Source of the DNA: an uncultured Candidatus Saccharibacteria bacterium
GTDB lineage: Bacteria; Patescibacteriota; Doudnabacteria; UBA920
DNA: 64,000 nt
Assembly: GCA_964402965.1 (NCBI GenBank)
Contig: CAYODY010000001.1
Location: forward strand, 72,002-136,001
Direction of reading: 5' to 3'
A program made the position numbers and the translations under genes. A model generated the notes under the pieces. It searched no databases and was not told the DNA's origin. It worked only from the letters and a program-made list of their open reading frames with translations. Positions 20,374 through 25,056 of this stretch are shown here, piece by piece. Each line of letters opens with the position of its first letter. Position 1 is the first letter of the stretch.

Positions 20374-21429
20374 TTATTCAATTAAATTTTTAGATTCTTC
20401 CGCAGCAAATTCAGTAACCTCTACTTGCTCCATTTGTAAGGTAGCAGCATTTTTAATGTTACTTTGTAGTTTAGTAAAATCGTTAGCAACAGTACCCATT
20501 GTATTGGCAGAATTCTTAATATGATTAGCAAGAATTCCTAAGTTTCGGCCGAATTTATCGGATTCTTGTTGGATTCCAGAAACCATATGCAAAAGCTTTT
20601 CAGCAACTTCGTTAACTTGCTGACCACGTAAGGCTATTAAAATAATTTGTAAATGATGGTATAAAGTGTTTGGGCTCACCATGTAGACTTTTTTGTTGCG
20701 GGCGTATTCAACTGTTGCCATGTCTTCTAAAGCTTCATGGAAAACTCCCTCGCTTGGAATGTACATTAGTGCAAAATCAAAAGTTCCTTCTTGAGTAAGG
20801 ATGTATTTTTTGTGAATTTCATCAATTCGCTTGCGAATATCACGTAAAAAAGCTTTTTTCAAATTTTCTGCAGAATCTTCCTCTTTCGCTTCTTTGTACA
20901 AACGAAAATTTTCCATGGAGAATTTGCTATCTATAGAAAGAATTTTGTCTCCTACGAAAACAGCCATGTCTACAATTTCACCGTTGCTAAATTTATACTG
21001 GGCTTTGTATGAATTTTTATTTAGCACTTGGGAAAGCATGTTCTCTAGCATTTCTTCACCAAAGTTTCCGCGTGCTTTTGGCGAGGCCAGAACTTCGGAC
21101 AAACGACGAATGTCTGGACCAATTTGCGACATTTCTCCAAGTCTTCCTTGTAGCGCACCAATTACTTTTGCGGCATTATCAAGGCGCTCGTTGATGTCTT
21201 TATTAGTCGCAGAAATAGACTTTTCCATAGCATCTTTTGTGGCTTCTGTACCGGTTTTGATATCGCGCATCCATTCCATCATTACTTTCATATTAGTGTC
21301 GTCAACTGGTTTCTCGGCCGACTTTTTGAGCGTCGAAAGCATATACAAAAGAACGCCGAATCCGGCCACAAGTAAAGCTATGATGATATATAAAAATGTT
21401 GTCATATGGTTAATTATAGCAGAGGGCAC
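20374..21429 (-). CDS. rmuC: DNA recombination protein RmuC
   Basis: N-terminal TM, a long coiled coil, and a C-terminal RmuC domain (GNFGEEMLENMLSQVL, SIDSKFSMENF). 351 aa. Confidence 0.7.
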   Translation of the reverse strand: MPSAIINHMTTFLYIIIALLVAGFGVLLYMLSTLKKSAEKPVDDTNMKVMMEWMRDIKTGTEATKDAMEKSISATNKDINERLDNAAKVIGALQGRLGEMSQIGPDIRRLSEVLASPKARGNFGEEMLENMLSQVLNKNSYKAQYKFSNGEIVDMAVFVGDKILSIDSKFSMENFRLYKEAKEEDSAENLKKAFLRDIRKRIDEIHKKYILTQEGTFDFALMYIPSEGVFHEALEDMATVEYARNKKVYMVSPNTLYHHLQIILIALRGQQVNEVAEKLLHMVSGIQQESDKFGRNLGILANHIKNSANTMGTVANDFTKLQSNIKNAATLQMEQVEVTEFAAEESKNLIE

Positions 21430-21469
21430 ATAAACCAGCTACTGAATCTATTTAATGCCTCTTAAACCC

Positions 21470-21498
21470 AAAACACGCCCCTCTAGAAGGCGTGTTTT
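21470..21498. terminator. bidirectional terminator-like hairpin flanking the R-M module (left side)
   Basis: AAAACACGCC-cctctagaa-GGCGTGTTTT, a perfect 10-bp stem. Its core ctctagaagg is shared with the hairpin at 23643-23672. Confidence 0.65.
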
Positions 21499-21592
21499 CG
21501 GAACTTTGTTAAGTTATATCAGCTTTAACAGCTGTATTAATTATATCAGGCTATTAGGCACGCGCAAGGGCTTGGGCTGTGGATATTCTCGT

Positions 21593-22612
21593 TTATTTTC
21601 CCAATTTTTTTAATGTGCCAAGAGTCAATAAACTAGCAGGATATATTGTGCTAATTTTTTGCATGTATTCTTTGGAATTATAGATTTCATCACTAACAAA
21701 TGTTATAACGCCGTAATTGGCAATTGATTTTGCCTTTTCTTCGGTTAAATCTAAACCAAGTGTTATTTGAATCATAACGTCAATTTTACTCATCTGAACA
21801 GTTTTTATAAATTGTTTATACCTCTCTCTTAGAGTTCTTTTGGCACCAATTCCGTATACTTTATTCTTTATTTTAAAGAAAAAGTCAAATTCTGTTGAAC
21901 TGTCTGCTTTGTCATGAGTTTTTGATATGTCATTTGCTTTTATCCCCAAACTAATAAGGATATTATATATTCTGTCTTCATAATTTGAACCTGCATCGGA
22001 TAGAATCGATTGATTGATACTTTCTGAAAACATTAACATAAACATCTGATTTGGTTCCAATCCTTTAGTTTTTAGGAATCTATAATCATGAAATAGAGAA
22101 TTAACATATTCTTTAGTTGATTGAGAAATGAAACTTGTATCTTTATCTTCAAGCTTTGAAAAAAACAATAGAGAGAGTAAAGCGCCATTAACTCTAGTGT
22201 AATATGGTTTGCTTTTTGAAATCGTGTCGTATTCGACTGAAAGTTGATTTACATTTTGAAGTGAGGATAAGTTAGATATATCTCCAACTTTGGCTTCAGC
22301 GAGCAGTAAAGGTTTAATTTGAATTAATTTAAGTGAGAAAACAAAAGTGATTAAATCAGTAGTATTTTTAACTTGATACATCATGGCAGTAAGCCCTACT
22401 TTTTTAGTTTCTGAAAGCTGGTCTATTAAATTAATAAATATTGCTTTAATTTGATTGAGTGATAGTTTGGAGTTAGAAAAGTATGCTTCCAAGAATTTAT
22501 TGATTTCATTATCCGATAATTTAATAGCACCATTAAGCTCCTTTAAGAAAAAATATAGATTAAAGTTAGCATCAAGCTTATTCCTTTTAATTTTGACCTT
22601 ATTTATTTTCAT
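21593..22612 (-). CDS. candidate type II restriction endonuclease (unassigned family) cognate to the adjacent m5C methyltransferase
   Basis: 339-aa ORF with no recognisable housekeeping motif. Its start overlaps the methyltransferase stop by 14 nt (translational coupling). The call rests on genomic context only. Confidence 0.4.
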   Translation of the reverse strand: MKINKVKIKRNKLDANFNLYFFLKELNGAIKLSDNEINKFLEAYFSNSKLSLNQIKAIFINLIDQLSETKKVGLTAMMYQVKNTTDLITFVFSLKLIQIKPLLLAEAKVGDISNLSSLQNVNQLSVEYDTISKSKPYYTRVNGALLSLLFFSKLEDKDTSFISQSTKEYVNSLFHDYRFLKTKGLEPNQMFMLMFSESINQSILSDAGSNYEDRIYNILISLGIKANDISKTHDKADSSTEFDFFFKIKNKVYGIGAKRTLRERYKQFIKTVQMSKIDVMIQITLGLDLTEEKAKSIANYGVITFVSDEIYNSKEYMQKISTIYPASLLTLGTLKKLGK

Positions 22613-23603
22613 GTTTTTGCAAGGTATTAATAATCTGTTTTGCTAATGTTTTGATTACAGGCACTGCAACGCTGTTACCGAATTGTTTATACATTTGATT
22701 ATCGCTATTTGGCAAAACAAAAGAATCTGGAAACCCTTGGAGTCTTGCAGCCTCTCTAGGTGTTAATTTACGAGGGTTTTTATTTTTTTGTTCAATTAAA
22801 ATTTCAGATCCGTCTTTGTAATATCTTGCTGATATTGTACTGGTATACTTGGATTTTCTGTTAAACAAAGAATAGCCAAAACCATTACCTTTTTCTCTAT
22901 GTTCTTTTTTTCTTCTTTGGTGTCCTGCCCATAATTTATCAGAAATTGTATACTTAGGATCAATTTTCTTTTCAAGAATATCTCCTAATTTTGTTGCAGG
23001 TTTTGGTTCATCTGGAAAAGTAAATTCTATATTCCCTTTAAAAGCAACAATGTAAATTCTAACTCGATTTTGAGGCAAACCAAAATCTTTAGCATTATAT
23101 AATCTATGATAAACTTTATAACCCATATCCTCTAGGGTAGAAATAATCACTTTTAAGGTATTCCCTTTGTCGTGGCTTGCTAAATTCCTAACATTTTCTA
23201 AAAATACAACCTTTGGTTTATGGTGTTTAACTATTCTCGCTATATCAAAAAATAAGGTTCCGCGAGTATCTTCAAAGCCTTTTTTTAGACCTGCTTGAGA
23301 AAATGGCTGACATGGAAAGCCTGCTAATAACATATCGAAATTTGGAATTTCTTCTGGAGATATTTTTGTGATATCTCCGTATGGCAATTCGCCGAAGTTT
23401 GCAAGGTATGTCTTTTTCGCTGCCTCGTCCCACTCTGAAGTAAATACGCATTCACCGCCAGCATTTTCAAAACCCATGCGTATCCCTCCGATTCCTGCAA
23501 ACAAATCGATAAAAGTAAATTTAGCAGATTTAATTTTGTTAATAGGTTTAGTAAATAAGTCCCTAATTATAACTTTGCGTTTTAGAACGGTAGTATTTTG
23601 CAT
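22599..23603 (-). CDS. DNA (cytosine-5)-methyltransferase, M.HhaI-like family
   Basis: All C5-MTase motifs are present: I FIDLFAGIGGIRMGF, IV GFPCQPFSQAG, VI VVFLENVRNL, VIII QNRVRIYIVAF, X YKQFGNSVAVPV. The conserved blocks closely parallel M.HhaI; the target-recognition domain differs. 334 aa. Confidence 0.9.
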   Translation of the reverse strand: MQNTTVLKRKVIIRDLFTKPINKIKSAKFTFIDLFAGIGGIRMGFENAGGECVFTSEWDEAAKKTYLANFGELPYGDITKISPEEIPNFDMLLAGFPCQPFSQAGLKKGFEDTRGTLFFDIARIVKHHKPKVVFLENVRNLASHDKGNTLKVIISTLEDMGYKVYHRLYNAKDFGLPQNRVRIYIVAFKGNIEFTFPDEPKPATKLGDILEKKIDPKYTISDKLWAGHQRRKKEHREKGNGFGYSLFNRKSKYTSTISARYYKDGSEILIEQKNKNPRKLTPREAARLQGFPDSFVLPNSDNQMYKQFGNSVAVPVIKTLAKQIINTLQKHENK

Positions 23604-23642
23604 GTATAAATTATAGCATTAGAGCGATAAAGTTTATAGAAA

Positions 23643-23672
23643 AAAACAACCCTCTCTAGAAGGATTGTTTTT
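23643..23672. terminator. bidirectional terminator-like hairpin flanking the R-M module (right side, next to tRNA-Asp)
   Basis: AAAAACAAcCCT-ctctaga-AGGaTTGTTTTT, a 9-bp stem with one mismatch. It shares the ctctagaagg core with the hairpin at 21470-21498. Confidence 0.55.
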
Positions 23673-23681
23673 ATATATACG

Positions 23682-23758
23682 TGGCGGACTGAACGGGACT
23701 CGAACCCGCGACCTCTCGCGTGACAGGCGAGCGCTCTAACCAACTGAGCTACCAGTCC
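23682..23758 (-). tRNA. tRNA-Asp (GUC), CCA encoded
   Basis: The reverse complement folds as a cloverleaf: GGACTGG acceptor, anticodon loop CTGTCAC (GTC), T-loop TTCGAGT, 3' end GCCA. Confidence 0.85.
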
Positions 23759-23904: not shown

Positions 23905-24042
23905 TTATTACCCTACTGCGCTACAATTAGACTTGCAATAATTACTCTTGCGCTGTTGCGAATTTTATTGATGCGGCTTATGCTTCTGCATAATTTTTTT
24001 GGTTGCGGGGCCGGGATTCGAACCCGGAACCTCAAGGTTATG

Positions 24043-24694
24043 CATACCACTATAGCTTTCGCTACTCTATCGAAATCGATTCGAAATAGATTTGATGGTC
24101 TGGACTTTCTCTTCATCCATCTATATAATGGATGCCTACCATTAAGTCTCTACACCTTCCTGAAAATCTTCAGGCTTGGCTCGGGATTGCCATCTAACAG
24201 GGTTCCCCGAATTTGATAGGATTCACATCTAAATTACTTTAGATGCAGCCCATAGTGAGATAAGTTCAAAGTTTTCTCGGTAATCAGCTGACTTTGGTTT
24301 ACGTTGACGTTTGTCAGTTTCAACTAAGGTAAGCGTGCTACCAAAACTTATAAATATTTCTACTGGAAAAACGTAAAAAATTCGTTTTTCAGGGATGTAT
24401 ACAATAGCGAAGTCAAAATCTTGTTTATTGTACAAACTTCTTATCATAAATCTGCGATTAGTCTTAGTGCGTCTAACATCAACACAATAGTTTTGATCAG
24501 AAGTGTTAAACCAAGCAGATTTTACTTGAAGTTTTACAAGCTTTCCATTTATATCAACTATTAGATCGTAGGAATGTCTGTCGCCCACAGGCTTCGAAAC
24601 TCCCCATCCAAACTCTAATAGTTTTAGAATAGTGGCTTGTTCAGCTACATCGCCTTTTAGTTTAGTATCCATATAAAGAACTTTCTCGAGATTG
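24043..24694 (-). mobile_element. group I self-splicing intron (~652 nt) carrying a homing-endonuclease-like ORF
   Basis: Reading the minus strand downstream of the ORF shows the group I core elements. P is AAATTCGGGGAACC, Q is GCAATCCCGAGCCAAGCC, R is GTGTAGAGACTTAATGG and S is AGAAAGTCCAGACC. A P6 hairpin (CCTGAAGATTTTCAGG) and a P8 hairpin (CATCCATtatatagATGGATG) are present. The 5' exon ends in U and the intron ends in G, consistent with CU|...G|CAUAA splicing. Confidence 0.75.
24229..24672 (-). CDS. intron-encoded PD-(D/E)xK-fold endonuclease (putative homing endonuclease, cf. I-Ssp6803I of the cyanobacterial tRNA-fMet intron)
   Basis: 147 aa. GDVAEQATILKLLEFGWGV...DRHSYDLIVDINGKLVKLQVKS fits a helix-E / D / (Q)xK restriction-fold core. 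It lies entirely inside the intron, 22 nt after the 5' splice site. Confidence 0.6.
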   Translation of the reverse strand: MDTKLKGDVAEQATILKLLEFGWGVSKPVGDRHSYDLIVDINGKLVKLQVKSAWFNTSDQNYCVDVRRTKTNRRFMIRSLYNKQDFDFAIVYIPEKRIFYVFPVEIFISFGSTLTLVETDKRQRKPKSADYRENFELISLWAASKVI

Positions 24695-24879
24695 AGCCTT
24701 GCGAGCTGCCAATTGCTCTACCCCGCGTCAATATATATACCAAAAGGTACTTGGAGATTATATCACTATTACTAGGATTTGGCAAGGTTTTAGGTAAAAT
24801 TTATCATAAATTTAGTCAAGTAAAACAAAACCGCCCCTTGCGGAACGGTTTCGTCGATTGCTTCGAAGCAATTATCGAA

Positions 24880-25056
24880 TTAACGACGACGCTTCTTAGC
24901 AGCTGGCTTACGCTTTGCAGCTGGCTTACGCTTTGCTACTTTACGCTTAGCTGGCTTTTTAGCGGCAGCTTTTTTAGCTGGACGCTTTGCTACTTTACGC
25001 TTTGCAGCTTTTTTAGCTGGTGCGCGCTTTGCAGCTTTTCGCTTTTTTACGGCCAT
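24880..25056 (-). CDS. small Lys/Ala-rich basic protein (histone H1-like / HU-unrelated nucleoid-associated candidate), 58 aa
   Basis: Minus-strand ORF translates as MAVKKRKAAKRAPAKKAAKRKVAKRPAKKAAAKKPAKRKVAKRKPAAKRKPAAKKRRR. It is missing from the ORF track, probably because it is under 60 aa. GGAGA SD 10 nt upstream; TAA stop at 24880-24882. Confidence 0.6.
   Translation of the reverse strand: MAVKKRKAAKRAPAKKAAKRKVAKRPAKKAAAKKPAKRKVAKRKPAAKRKPAAKKRRR
24890..25050. repeat. tandem/imperfect direct repeats underlying the Lys/Ala-rich ORF
   Basis: Perfect 18-bp tandem duplication agctggcttacgctttgc at 24901-24918 and 24919-24936. The 20-mer cgctttgctactttacgctt occurs at 24929-24948 and 24983-25002. 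ttttttagctgg occurs at 24970-24981 and 25009-25020. Confidence 0.8.

Follow-up and report, generated by a model that had tools for sequence, protein, structure and literature searches.

The window analyzed here, a 64-kb stretch of a Patescibacteria (CPR) genome, carries two overlapping genes on the minus strand between a tRNA-Asp gene and RmuC. The first gene (M, 22599..23603) encodes, according to Pfam, TIGR and motif evidence, a C5-cytosine DNA methyltransferase (MTase) of 334 aa, which is of the SsoII/Ecl18kI/SpyI type. The second (R, 21593..22612) encodes a predicted restriction endonuclease of 339 aa. Both open reading frames were confirmed as they stood in a preliminary description of this DNA, including the overlap of 14 nt between the M stop and the R start (ATGAAAATAAATAA, 22599-22612, minus strand), which can be read directly from the sequence. 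Together with a promoter, the two genes make up an R-M cassette of ~2,054 bp (21587..23640, minus strand).

Several observations indicate that the cassette is an insertion. First, empty insertion sites are present in relatives, and the cassette boundaries were defined by aligning the two window junctions with the empty sites of five of them (L013, L014, L017, L071 and L078). Second, M and R are both absent from all 78 related RmuC loci. Third, the GC content of the M gene (33%) and the R gene (28.5%) is lower than that of the window (36.9%). The explanation that we favor as a whole, with a probability of about 0.78, is that this Patescibacteria (CPR) genome gained a minimal Type IIP R-M cassette by horizontal transfer.

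Upstream, the insertion site is marked by the tRNA-Asp gene (23682-23758, minus strand; ARAGORN and Rfam), followed by its hairpin/T-run terminator (23663-23641, minus strand; terminator scan); relatives are arranged alike. On the other side lies a small-RNA-like transcription unit with its own promoter, 5′ hairpin and terminator (21464..21586, minus strand). This unit is older than the cassette and is kept at the empty sites of about 10 relatives. It includes an AAGTTCC(A/G)AA stretch, its terminator stem shows compensatory changes at five pairs, and it has no match in Rfam. The preliminary description had counted positions 21470-21592 as part of the R-M module, but they correspond to this conserved unit, which also stands where the cassette is absent. 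The terminator of the small unit is outside the cassette, yet it is probably the end of the cassette transcript. Two similar hairpins (CCTTCTAGAG.GGG) were considered as a target-site duplication and rejected, since both exist at the empty sites of relatives.

The MTase matches Pfam PF00145 (DNA_methylase, 4e-113) and TIGR00675 (2e-110), and its motifs I, IV (PCQ, with Cys98), VI, VIII, IX and X are all intact. The conserved blocks reported earlier (FIDLFAGIGG, GFPCQPFS, RGTLFFDIARIV, KPKVVFLENV and QNRVRIY) were all found. Among solved structures, the best sequence match of the full MTase is M.HhaI (9e-77), in line with the preliminary view of an M.HhaI-like enzyme with a novel target-recognition domain (TRD), a new specificity and a nuclease of unknown family as its partner. 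The likeness to M.HhaI is real, but it extends no further than the catalytic domain, the motifs of which are common to all C5-MTases. When the TRD (aa 195-282; 22758..23021, minus strand) was searched alone, M.HhaI was not matched, so the domain is not of the M.HhaI-like (GCGC) kind; only the Dcm-type structures 3LX6/3ME5 were found (E = 4e-13). The TRD of M.HhaI is unrelated, and therefore HhaI specificity does not transfer. Characterized relatives are far closer, with 61% identity to M.Ecl18kI (pECL18) and 65% to M.SpyI over the MTase, and 42% identity with 70 gap positions to Dcm. Nor is the TRD distinct, as had been claimed: it aligns without gaps to those of M.Ecl18kI and M.SpyI at 68% and 74% identity, respectively.

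The MTase combines the catalytic motifs with a CCNGG-type TRD and, judged by its sequence, is a member of the SsoII/Ecl18kI/SpyI clade, the characterized members of which methylate CCNGG. M.SpyI methylates CCAGG, CCTGG, CCCGG and CCGGG (PMC10082018), and the recognition site of Ecl18kI is CCNGG (PMC2577355). Given the gap-free TRD identity to these CCNGG enzymes, CCNGG is the most likely target of the window MTase, although identity of 61-74% is no guarantee of equal MTase specificity. On each strand of CCNGG, the inner cytosine is the base most likely to be methylated. The unknown or new specificity proposed for the pair is not borne out by this clade membership. The N-terminal HTH autoregulatory region of M.SsoII and M.Ecl18kI is missing from the window MTase: the alignment begins at M.Ecl18kI residue 61, and about 27 residues precede motif I. 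The HTH region is present in the Bacillus MTase homologue. C5/Dcm-type enzymes fall outside the scope of a 2026 preprint on CPR methyltransferases.

It is unlikely that a system of like architecture is instead specific for CCWGG, as are Dcm, EcoRII and PspGI, or for some other subset or relative of CCNGG. Compared with its gap-free alignment to two CCNGG enzymes, the TRD shows 36% identity and 18 gaps to that of Dcm (CCWGG). Moreover, CCWGG is not depleted in the window (48 sites versus 47 expected from base composition), and CCSGG is low (6 versus 27.5 expected; the Markov expectation is 8). The count of CCNGG, a check suggested earlier, did reveal a modest depletion: 54 sites versus about 75 expected, with an observed/expected ratio of 0.71-0.72 in the window versus 0.88-1.00 in close relatives that lack the cassette. 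However, CCGG is depleted at least as strongly; therefore, CCNGG is not singled out and site usage is not diagnostic.

An extended -10 element, TGcTATAAT (23610..23618, minus strand), was read directly from the sequence and is the putative promoter of the cassette. Its end is separated from the MTase ATG by 6 nt, so the MTase mRNA is probably leaderless; no Shine-Dalgarno sequence was seen upstream of this ATG. RmuC is preceded by a like layout, TGnTATAAT plus about 7 nt, both here and in relatives. A consensus promoter scan yielded nothing above the shuffled expectation and did not list the extended -10 element because its -35 hexamer is poor. A single transcript, probably leaderless, would start from this element, with the methyltransferase encoded first. 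The ATG of R likewise has no Shine-Dalgarno sequence in sight. Because R starts 14 nt inside the end of the M gene and is without a ribosome-binding site of its own, its translation would be coupled to that of M, most likely being carried out only by ribosomes fresh from M. With such coupling, protection would come no later than restriction, and probably in excess. Homologous M-R junctions at four other loci show overlaps of 4, 4 and 11 nt and one 4-nt gap; in the Bacillus case, the genes lie 92 nt apart, with a strong Shine-Dalgarno sequence in between.

In R, an all-helical N-terminal region spans aa 1-221, and the nuclease core spans aa 244-325. According to the preliminary description this protein had no detectable motifs. 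However, it matches Pfam PF09019 (EcoRII-C) with E = 0.0032 and 18 bits, below the gathering cut-off of 25. The same profile is matched by 34 of 41 R homologues at E<=0.01 (best 1.7e-6), and several database homologues have a precomputed PF09019 match. In an hhalign comparison with R.Ecl18kI (E = 2.9e-5), E212 is aligned with E125, K258 with K182, and the RER triplets with each other. The best fold matches are restriction enzymes, with low Foldseek TM-scores of 0.31-0.49, and the predicted PD-(D/E)XK fold is most like members of the CCGG-family (Cfr10I, NgoMIV, SgrAI, AgeI, BsaWI, Kpn2I, Ecl18kI, PspGI, EcoRII-C and PfoI; PMC6344858). A profile search of PDB sequences with R matched no restriction enzyme, PfoI being missed as well, and no sequence similarity between PfoI and R was detected. 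Weak matches to internalin (leucine-rich repeat), obtained from PDB sequences with single-sequence and profile HMM searches, had E>=1e-3 and were judged spurious. NCBIfam and PADLOC searches assigned R to no family; tblastn gave no match in phage genomes and one distant match, from Bacillus, in plasmids. The lack of an above-threshold family in Pfam, NCBIfam or PADLOC would agree with a nuclease of unknown family beside an M.HhaI-like enzyme. Nevertheless, profile, motif and fold together place R as a divergent CCGG-family member, a cousin of the Ecl18kI/PspGI/EcoRII cutters and not a new fold, and the HhaI-based account as a whole is hardly credible. What is upheld from that account is a compact Type II R-M module with overlapping genes, M before R, in which the second product is a predicted nuclease.

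In the CCGG-family, a conserved helix opens with the R-(D/E)-R motif, a few residues past the catalytic Lys (PMC6344858). The same layout was found in R. The block K258-R-T-L-R262-E263-R264 (codons 21821..21841, minus strand) aligns to ISAK-TTL-RER of Ecl18kI, and it holds a putative catalytic Lys and a putative R-E-R triplet for reading CC:GG. Across 51 sequences with identity down to 26%, K258, E263 and R264 never vary, and all but one retain R262. In the model of R, strand 251-257 is followed by helix 262-274 with RER at its N-terminus. The active site shows a departure from the family pattern. Canonical members have a permuted PD...K...(D/E) site, with the acidic residue ~13-14 positions past the Lys on the recognition helix (PMC6344858), for example E195 at K+13 in Ecl18kI. 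R does not have this arrangement: the position is T271, and it is T, L, D, N, S or K across the R family. Instead, R has E241-F-D243 (codons 21884..21892, minus strand), an ExD that is proposed to bind metal where the second core strand begins; all 51 sequences have both E241 and D243. The conserved Glu E212 (codon 21977..21979, minus strand), on the N-terminal helix of the putative active site, is equally invariant (51/51), and its hhalign partner is the Glu of GKEFE in Ecl18kI. PfoI, an active and accepted member of the family, has an E...ExD...K arrangement (PMC6344858), and the invariant ExD of R is a deviation of the same kind. D234, which hhalign puts opposite D160 of Ecl18kI, was considered for this role but rejected, since D, H and E all occur at its position in the family. 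D243 is invariant and precedes strand 244-248 in the model, and is the preferred, not the proven, candidate for the catalytic Asp.

The missing canonical Glu could also point to a catalytically dead DNA-binding relic or to a Vsr-like T:G mismatch nicking/repair nuclease serving an m5C methylase. A Vsr role would fit with the overlapping dcm and vsr genes of E. coli, and no Vsr is encoded within the window. However, R has no match to Pfam PF03852, its best folds are restriction enzymes and not Vsr, and at one locus (L091) a separate, true Vsr directly follows an R homologue; therefore, the two are not equivalent. The invariance of E212, E241, D243 and K258 over about 200 clusters indicates a maintained active site, and PfoI is active with the matching layout. 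Both ideas are thus very improbable.

In the favored restriction reading, R is probably a homodimer. The recognition helix would be inserted into the major groove, with R262-E263-R264 at its N-terminus recognizing both CC:GG half-sites, and E212, E241, D243 and K258 would make up a Mg2+-dependent active site. By analogy, cleavage of incoming DNA would take place in front of the first C, at all unmethylated CCNGG sites or at a subset of them; recognition of CCNGG by R is predicted only from its partner MTase, with its place in the CCNGG clade. In Ecl18kI (R116), PspGI and EcoRII, an Arg serves next to the flipped base, and the alignment puts Ile203 of R opposite this Arg. R may thus treat the central base pair differently, or this part of the alignment may be wrong.

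R differs from each of the known systems. BLAST similarity to the endonuclease of Ecl18kI/SsoII (CCNGG; plasmids pECL18, P4-type) is limited to one 38-residue stretch, and the helical region before the active-site Glu has 211 residues in R versus about 124 in Ecl18kI. The genes of pECL18 are divergent, whereas those in the window are co-directional and overlapping. PfoI (T^CCNGGA), the most diverged characterized CCGG-family member, has an altered R189-x-K191-E192, whereas the R family has the canonical, contiguous R-E-R. PspGI and the C-terminal domain of EcoRII require an A/T pair at the center of their site (CCWGG). At its N-terminus, EcoRII carries a B3-like effector domain, in contrast to the all-helical N-terminus of R, for which no relative was detected. 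M.PspGI is thought to be an N4-cytosine enzyme, unlike the C5 MTase in the window. Finally, SpyI, from Streptococcus pyogenes phage phi1207.3, has the closest characterized MTase, but its restriction partner has two subunits, one with an AAA (dynein-related) domain and the other LlaJI-like, and is unrelated to R. One MTase clade pairs with at least three different nuclease partners.

The R family comprises about 200 clusters at 50% identity and more than 900 database proteins, all unnamed or annotated as "hypothetical". Seven contexts were examined, drawn from CPR, DPANN archaea, Campylobacterales and a Bacillus plasmid, and in each of them R is directly downstream of an SsoII/Ecl18kI/SpyI-type MTase. 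The partner MTase in Bacillus is 63% identical to M.Ecl18kI. Most of the family comes from CPR bacteria and DPANN archaea, groups whose defense systems are poorly cataloged.

This is otherwise an ordinary Type IIP R-M system. What it adds is modest: the nuclease is a variant, unannotated until now, within an established family, and enzymes with the predicted specificity have already been described and can be bought. The R family, to which a function and a CCNGG site can now be assigned as predictions, is missed by NCBIfam and PADLOC, and many members, R of the window among them, fall below the Pfam EcoRII-C threshold. We would tentatively suggest, as a possibility short of an even chance, that the R family is a distinct solution within the CCGG-family, which combines an Ecl18kI-type R-E-R, a PfoI-type E...ExD...K, a hydrophobic residue for the Arg wedge and an extra helical N-terminus, and hence may handle the central base of CCNGG in another way. 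If so, it may leave the base unflipped, use another pocket, show a narrower or novel preference at the central base, or need two sites by way of its N-terminus. As a natural hybrid of the active site and recognition features of Ecl18kI and PfoI, the family could shed light on how catalytic residues come to change position inside a single fold.

Two genes on the minus strand of the window, encoding a 334-aa C5-methyltransferase (MTase, or M; 22599..23603) and a 339-aa protein (R; 21593..22612), lie exactly where the preliminary description placed them, and the 14 nt common to the MTase stop and the R start (ATGAAAATAAATAA) were confirmed from the sequence. The MTase matches Pfam DNA_methylase (4e-113) and TIGR00675 (2e-110); motifs I, IV (PCQ), VI (ENV), VIII (QNRVR), IX and X are all intact, and every C5-MTase block quoted in that description was found. 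Therefore, the sequence-level observation holds. M.HhaI is its top full-length match among solved structures (9e-77). When the target-recognition domain (TRD, aa 195-282) was searched alone against solved structures, M.HhaI gave no match, and the hits were confined to 3LX6/3ME5, which are Dcm-type (E 4e-13).

Two characterised enzymes are nearest to the MTase in annotated collections. One, the methyltransferase of the Ecl18kI system on Enterobacter cloacae plasmid pECL18, is 60.9% identical across 93% of the protein and occurs in identical form on small plasmids of Shigella, Klebsiella and E. coli; the other, spyIM from S. pyogenes phage phi1207.3, is 64.9% identical. Ecl18kI recognizes CCNGG (PMC2577355), and M.SpyI methylates CCAGG, CCTGG, CCCGG and CCGGG (PMC10082018). 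The TRD, once considered distinct, is 68% and 74% identical, gap-free, to those of M.Ecl18kI and M.SpyI, respectively, and identity to both enzymes is greater in the TRD than in the catalytic domain. In contrast, the TRD of E. coli Dcm (CCWGG) is 36% identical, with 18 gaps. From this closeness to CCNGG enzymes and distance from Dcm, the predicted target is CCNGG, an already known specificity rather than the new one initially proposed, and the MTase is a new addition to the SsoII/Ecl18kI/SpyI clade of CCNGG enzymes. Unlike M.Ecl18kI and M.SsoII, it has no N-terminal HTH region (the alignment starts at Ecl18kI residue 61).

In a count of sites for avoidance, CCNGG occurs 54 times in the window versus about 75 expected (O/E 0.71-0.72), below the 0.88-1.00 of close relatives without the cassette (M plus R), but CCGG is depleted too (31 sites versus 74.5 expected from composition or 47 from a Markov model; about 1.0 in close relatives). 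The test is only suggestive for a CCNGG system. The depletion of CCGG exceeds what such a system alone explains; another system, directed at CCGG and encoded elsewhere in the genome, may be behind it.

The R protein had been regarded as a candidate nuclease of unknown family with no detectable motifs. However, its residues 193-321 match positions 25-157 of Pfam EcoRII-C below threshold (E 0.0032, 18 bits; cut-off 25 bits), the part of the model on which R.Ecl18kI also falls. R has >900 homologues, every one unnamed or 'hypothetical'; in a sample of 41, EcoRII-C was matched by 34, at 1.7e-6 in the best case. BLASTP aligned IGAKRTLRERYKQ of R to ISAKTTLRERWQE of R.Ecl18kI, and when hhalign compared the R family profile with R.Ecl18kI (E 2.9e-5), E212 fell opposite the GKEFE Glu, K258 opposite the catalytic Lys, and the two RER motifs opposite each other. 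Ecl18kI and EcoRII-C belong to the CCGG-family, whose definition has three parts: a permuted PD...K...D/E active site, a conserved helix that carries R-(D/E)R at its N-terminus, and cleavage ahead of the first C in a CCGG/CCNGG core (PMC6344858). In an AlphaFold2 model of R (41 input sequences, pLDDT 83), an all-helical N-terminal part (1-221) is followed by an alpha/beta core, in which strand 251-257 ends just ahead of K258 and R262-E263-R264 stands at the N-terminus of helix 262-274, straight after that strand. When 1.84 billion representatives were searched exhaustively with the profile, the family came out as 207 clusters (50% identity), full-length members being nearly all 320-365 aa. Across 51 divergent sequences (identity down to 26%), R140, Q201, E212, E241, D243, K258, E263, R264, K266, Q267 and D288 are invariant, and R262 is kept in 50. 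The EcoRII-C match, hhalign and the model place R in a divergent and so far unannotated branch of the CCGG-family whose active site is a variant one.

This variation has a precedent. In Ecl18kI, PspGI and EcoRII the catalytic Glu lies 13 residues after the Lys; R has T271 there, a position variable family-wide. Instead, an invariant E241-x-D243 stands where the second core strand begins, giving E...ExD...K, the same order as the atypical arrangement demonstrated in PfoI (PMC6344858). Beside the flipped base, Ecl18kI, PspGI and EcoRII have an Arg, which aligns with Ile203 of R; PfoI is likewise hydrophobic at this position (PMC6344858). The helical N-terminal region is longer than in canonical members. 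The catalytic Asp is probably D243 and not D234, judging from invariance and strand position, although hhalign placed the gap otherwise. With its Ecl18kI-like RER and PfoI-like E...ExD...K, the R family appears to combine both types, an Ecl18kI-type reading head joined to a PfoI-type catalytic centre.

The R gene is directly downstream of the same MTase type in all 7 contexts examined: the window and identical contigs, a 656-kb Pacearchaeota contig, a Campylobacterales MAG, three further metagenomic contigs, and a Bacillus plasmid, on which R is only 31.5% identical but the MTase shares 63% identity, and the HTH region, with M.Ecl18kI. In small-genome hosts M and R overlap by 4-14 nt or stand 4 nt apart, and in Bacillus they are separated by 92 nt that include a strong Shine-Dalgarno sequence. 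Serine recombinases or integrases adjoin several copies. R might be taken as the equivalent of Vsr; in one locus (L091), however, a true Vsr (PF03852; 5038-5454) follows R as a third gene, which argues against this. In two other loci (L008 and L009) the third gene is an unrelated 173-aa ORF (L008 7024-7545) for which no Pfam match is recorded, and a serine recombinase comes after it. Neither Vsr nor this ORF is present as a third gene in the window cassette.

Neither M nor R was found in any of 78 related loci. The relatives, identified by RmuC (identity up to 89%) and for the most part labelled Ca. Doudnabacteria or, generically, Ca. Saccharibacteria, put the host of the window in Patescibacteria. 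Their empty site consists of tRNA-Asp, a terminator, a conserved ~120-nt unit and RmuC, and the window cassette (23640..21587, minus strand, ~2,054 bp) sits between that first terminator and the unit. It contains an extended -10 element and two genes, nothing further; neither an integrase within the insert nor a convincing target duplication was found. GC content is 33% in M and 28.5% in R versus 36.9% in the window. The terminator at ~21464-21498, included in the module (21470-23672) by the preliminary description, belongs to the pre-existing unit. M and R form a Type IIP R-M cassette that is genuine, intact and of recent acquisition. The tRNA-Asp/RmuC interval carries differing inserts of 1-4 kb in other relatives (L015, L016, L018, L019, L020 and L021) and thus looks like a hot spot for insertions.

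The extended -10 element, TGcTATAAT, ends 6 nt ahead of the MTase ATG, implying that the MTase mRNA is probably leaderless. A TGnTATAAT element ends 6-7 nt before the ATG of both MTase and RmuC (23601-23620; 21405-21440), which suggests leaderless mRNAs for both; RmuC probably starts at the ATG at 21405 (343 aa, as called on contig L001), not at the ORF finder's GTG at 21429. The conserved unit between tRNA-Asp and RmuC (21464-21586, minus strand) resembles a small RNA gene, has no Rfam match and recurs in L012, L013, L014, L017, L023, L055, L071, L077 and L078. It comprises a promoter (-35 hexamer TTGCnn, -10 element TGnTAnnAT), a 5' hairpin in which compensatory changes occur, a single-stranded stretch conserved as AAGTTCC(A/G)AAG, and a terminator whose loop (UUCUAGAG) is invariant and whose stem has five covarying pairs.

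Nearby, an initiator-type tRNA-Met (C1/A72; 24000-24727, minus strand) is split in the anticodon loop by a group I intron (about 24694-24043, ~652 nt; Rfam RF00028, 70.4 bits). Its exons (24727-24695 and 24042-24000) exactly match the intact tRNA of a relative (L014). The intron ORF (24229-24672, minus strand) codes for a homing endonuclease of the PDDEXK_5 type (Pfam 8e-47; PADLOC HEase 2.6e-60). One tRNA-Met is detectable in relatives with the homing endonuclease gene and two in those without. The intron resembles the cyanobacterial tRNA-fMet intron encoding I-Ssp6803I. Lys, Ala, Arg and Pro make up almost all of a 58-aa ORF (AKKAAKRKVAKRPAKKAAAKK...; 24880-25056, minus strand) that is called as a gene on contig L002. 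Its product has the look of a small basic nucleoid protein, akin to histone H1 or of another kind.

CCNGG C5-MTases of a single clade occur with three different nuclease partners: Ecl18kI-type (pECL18), two-subunit AAA/LlaJI-like (phage phi1207.3) and the R family of the window. This illustrates partner swapping in R-M systems. Overall the finding is modest and no surprise, and it is of use in annotating the defence systems of CPR and DPANN genomes and for the structural evolution of restriction enzymes.
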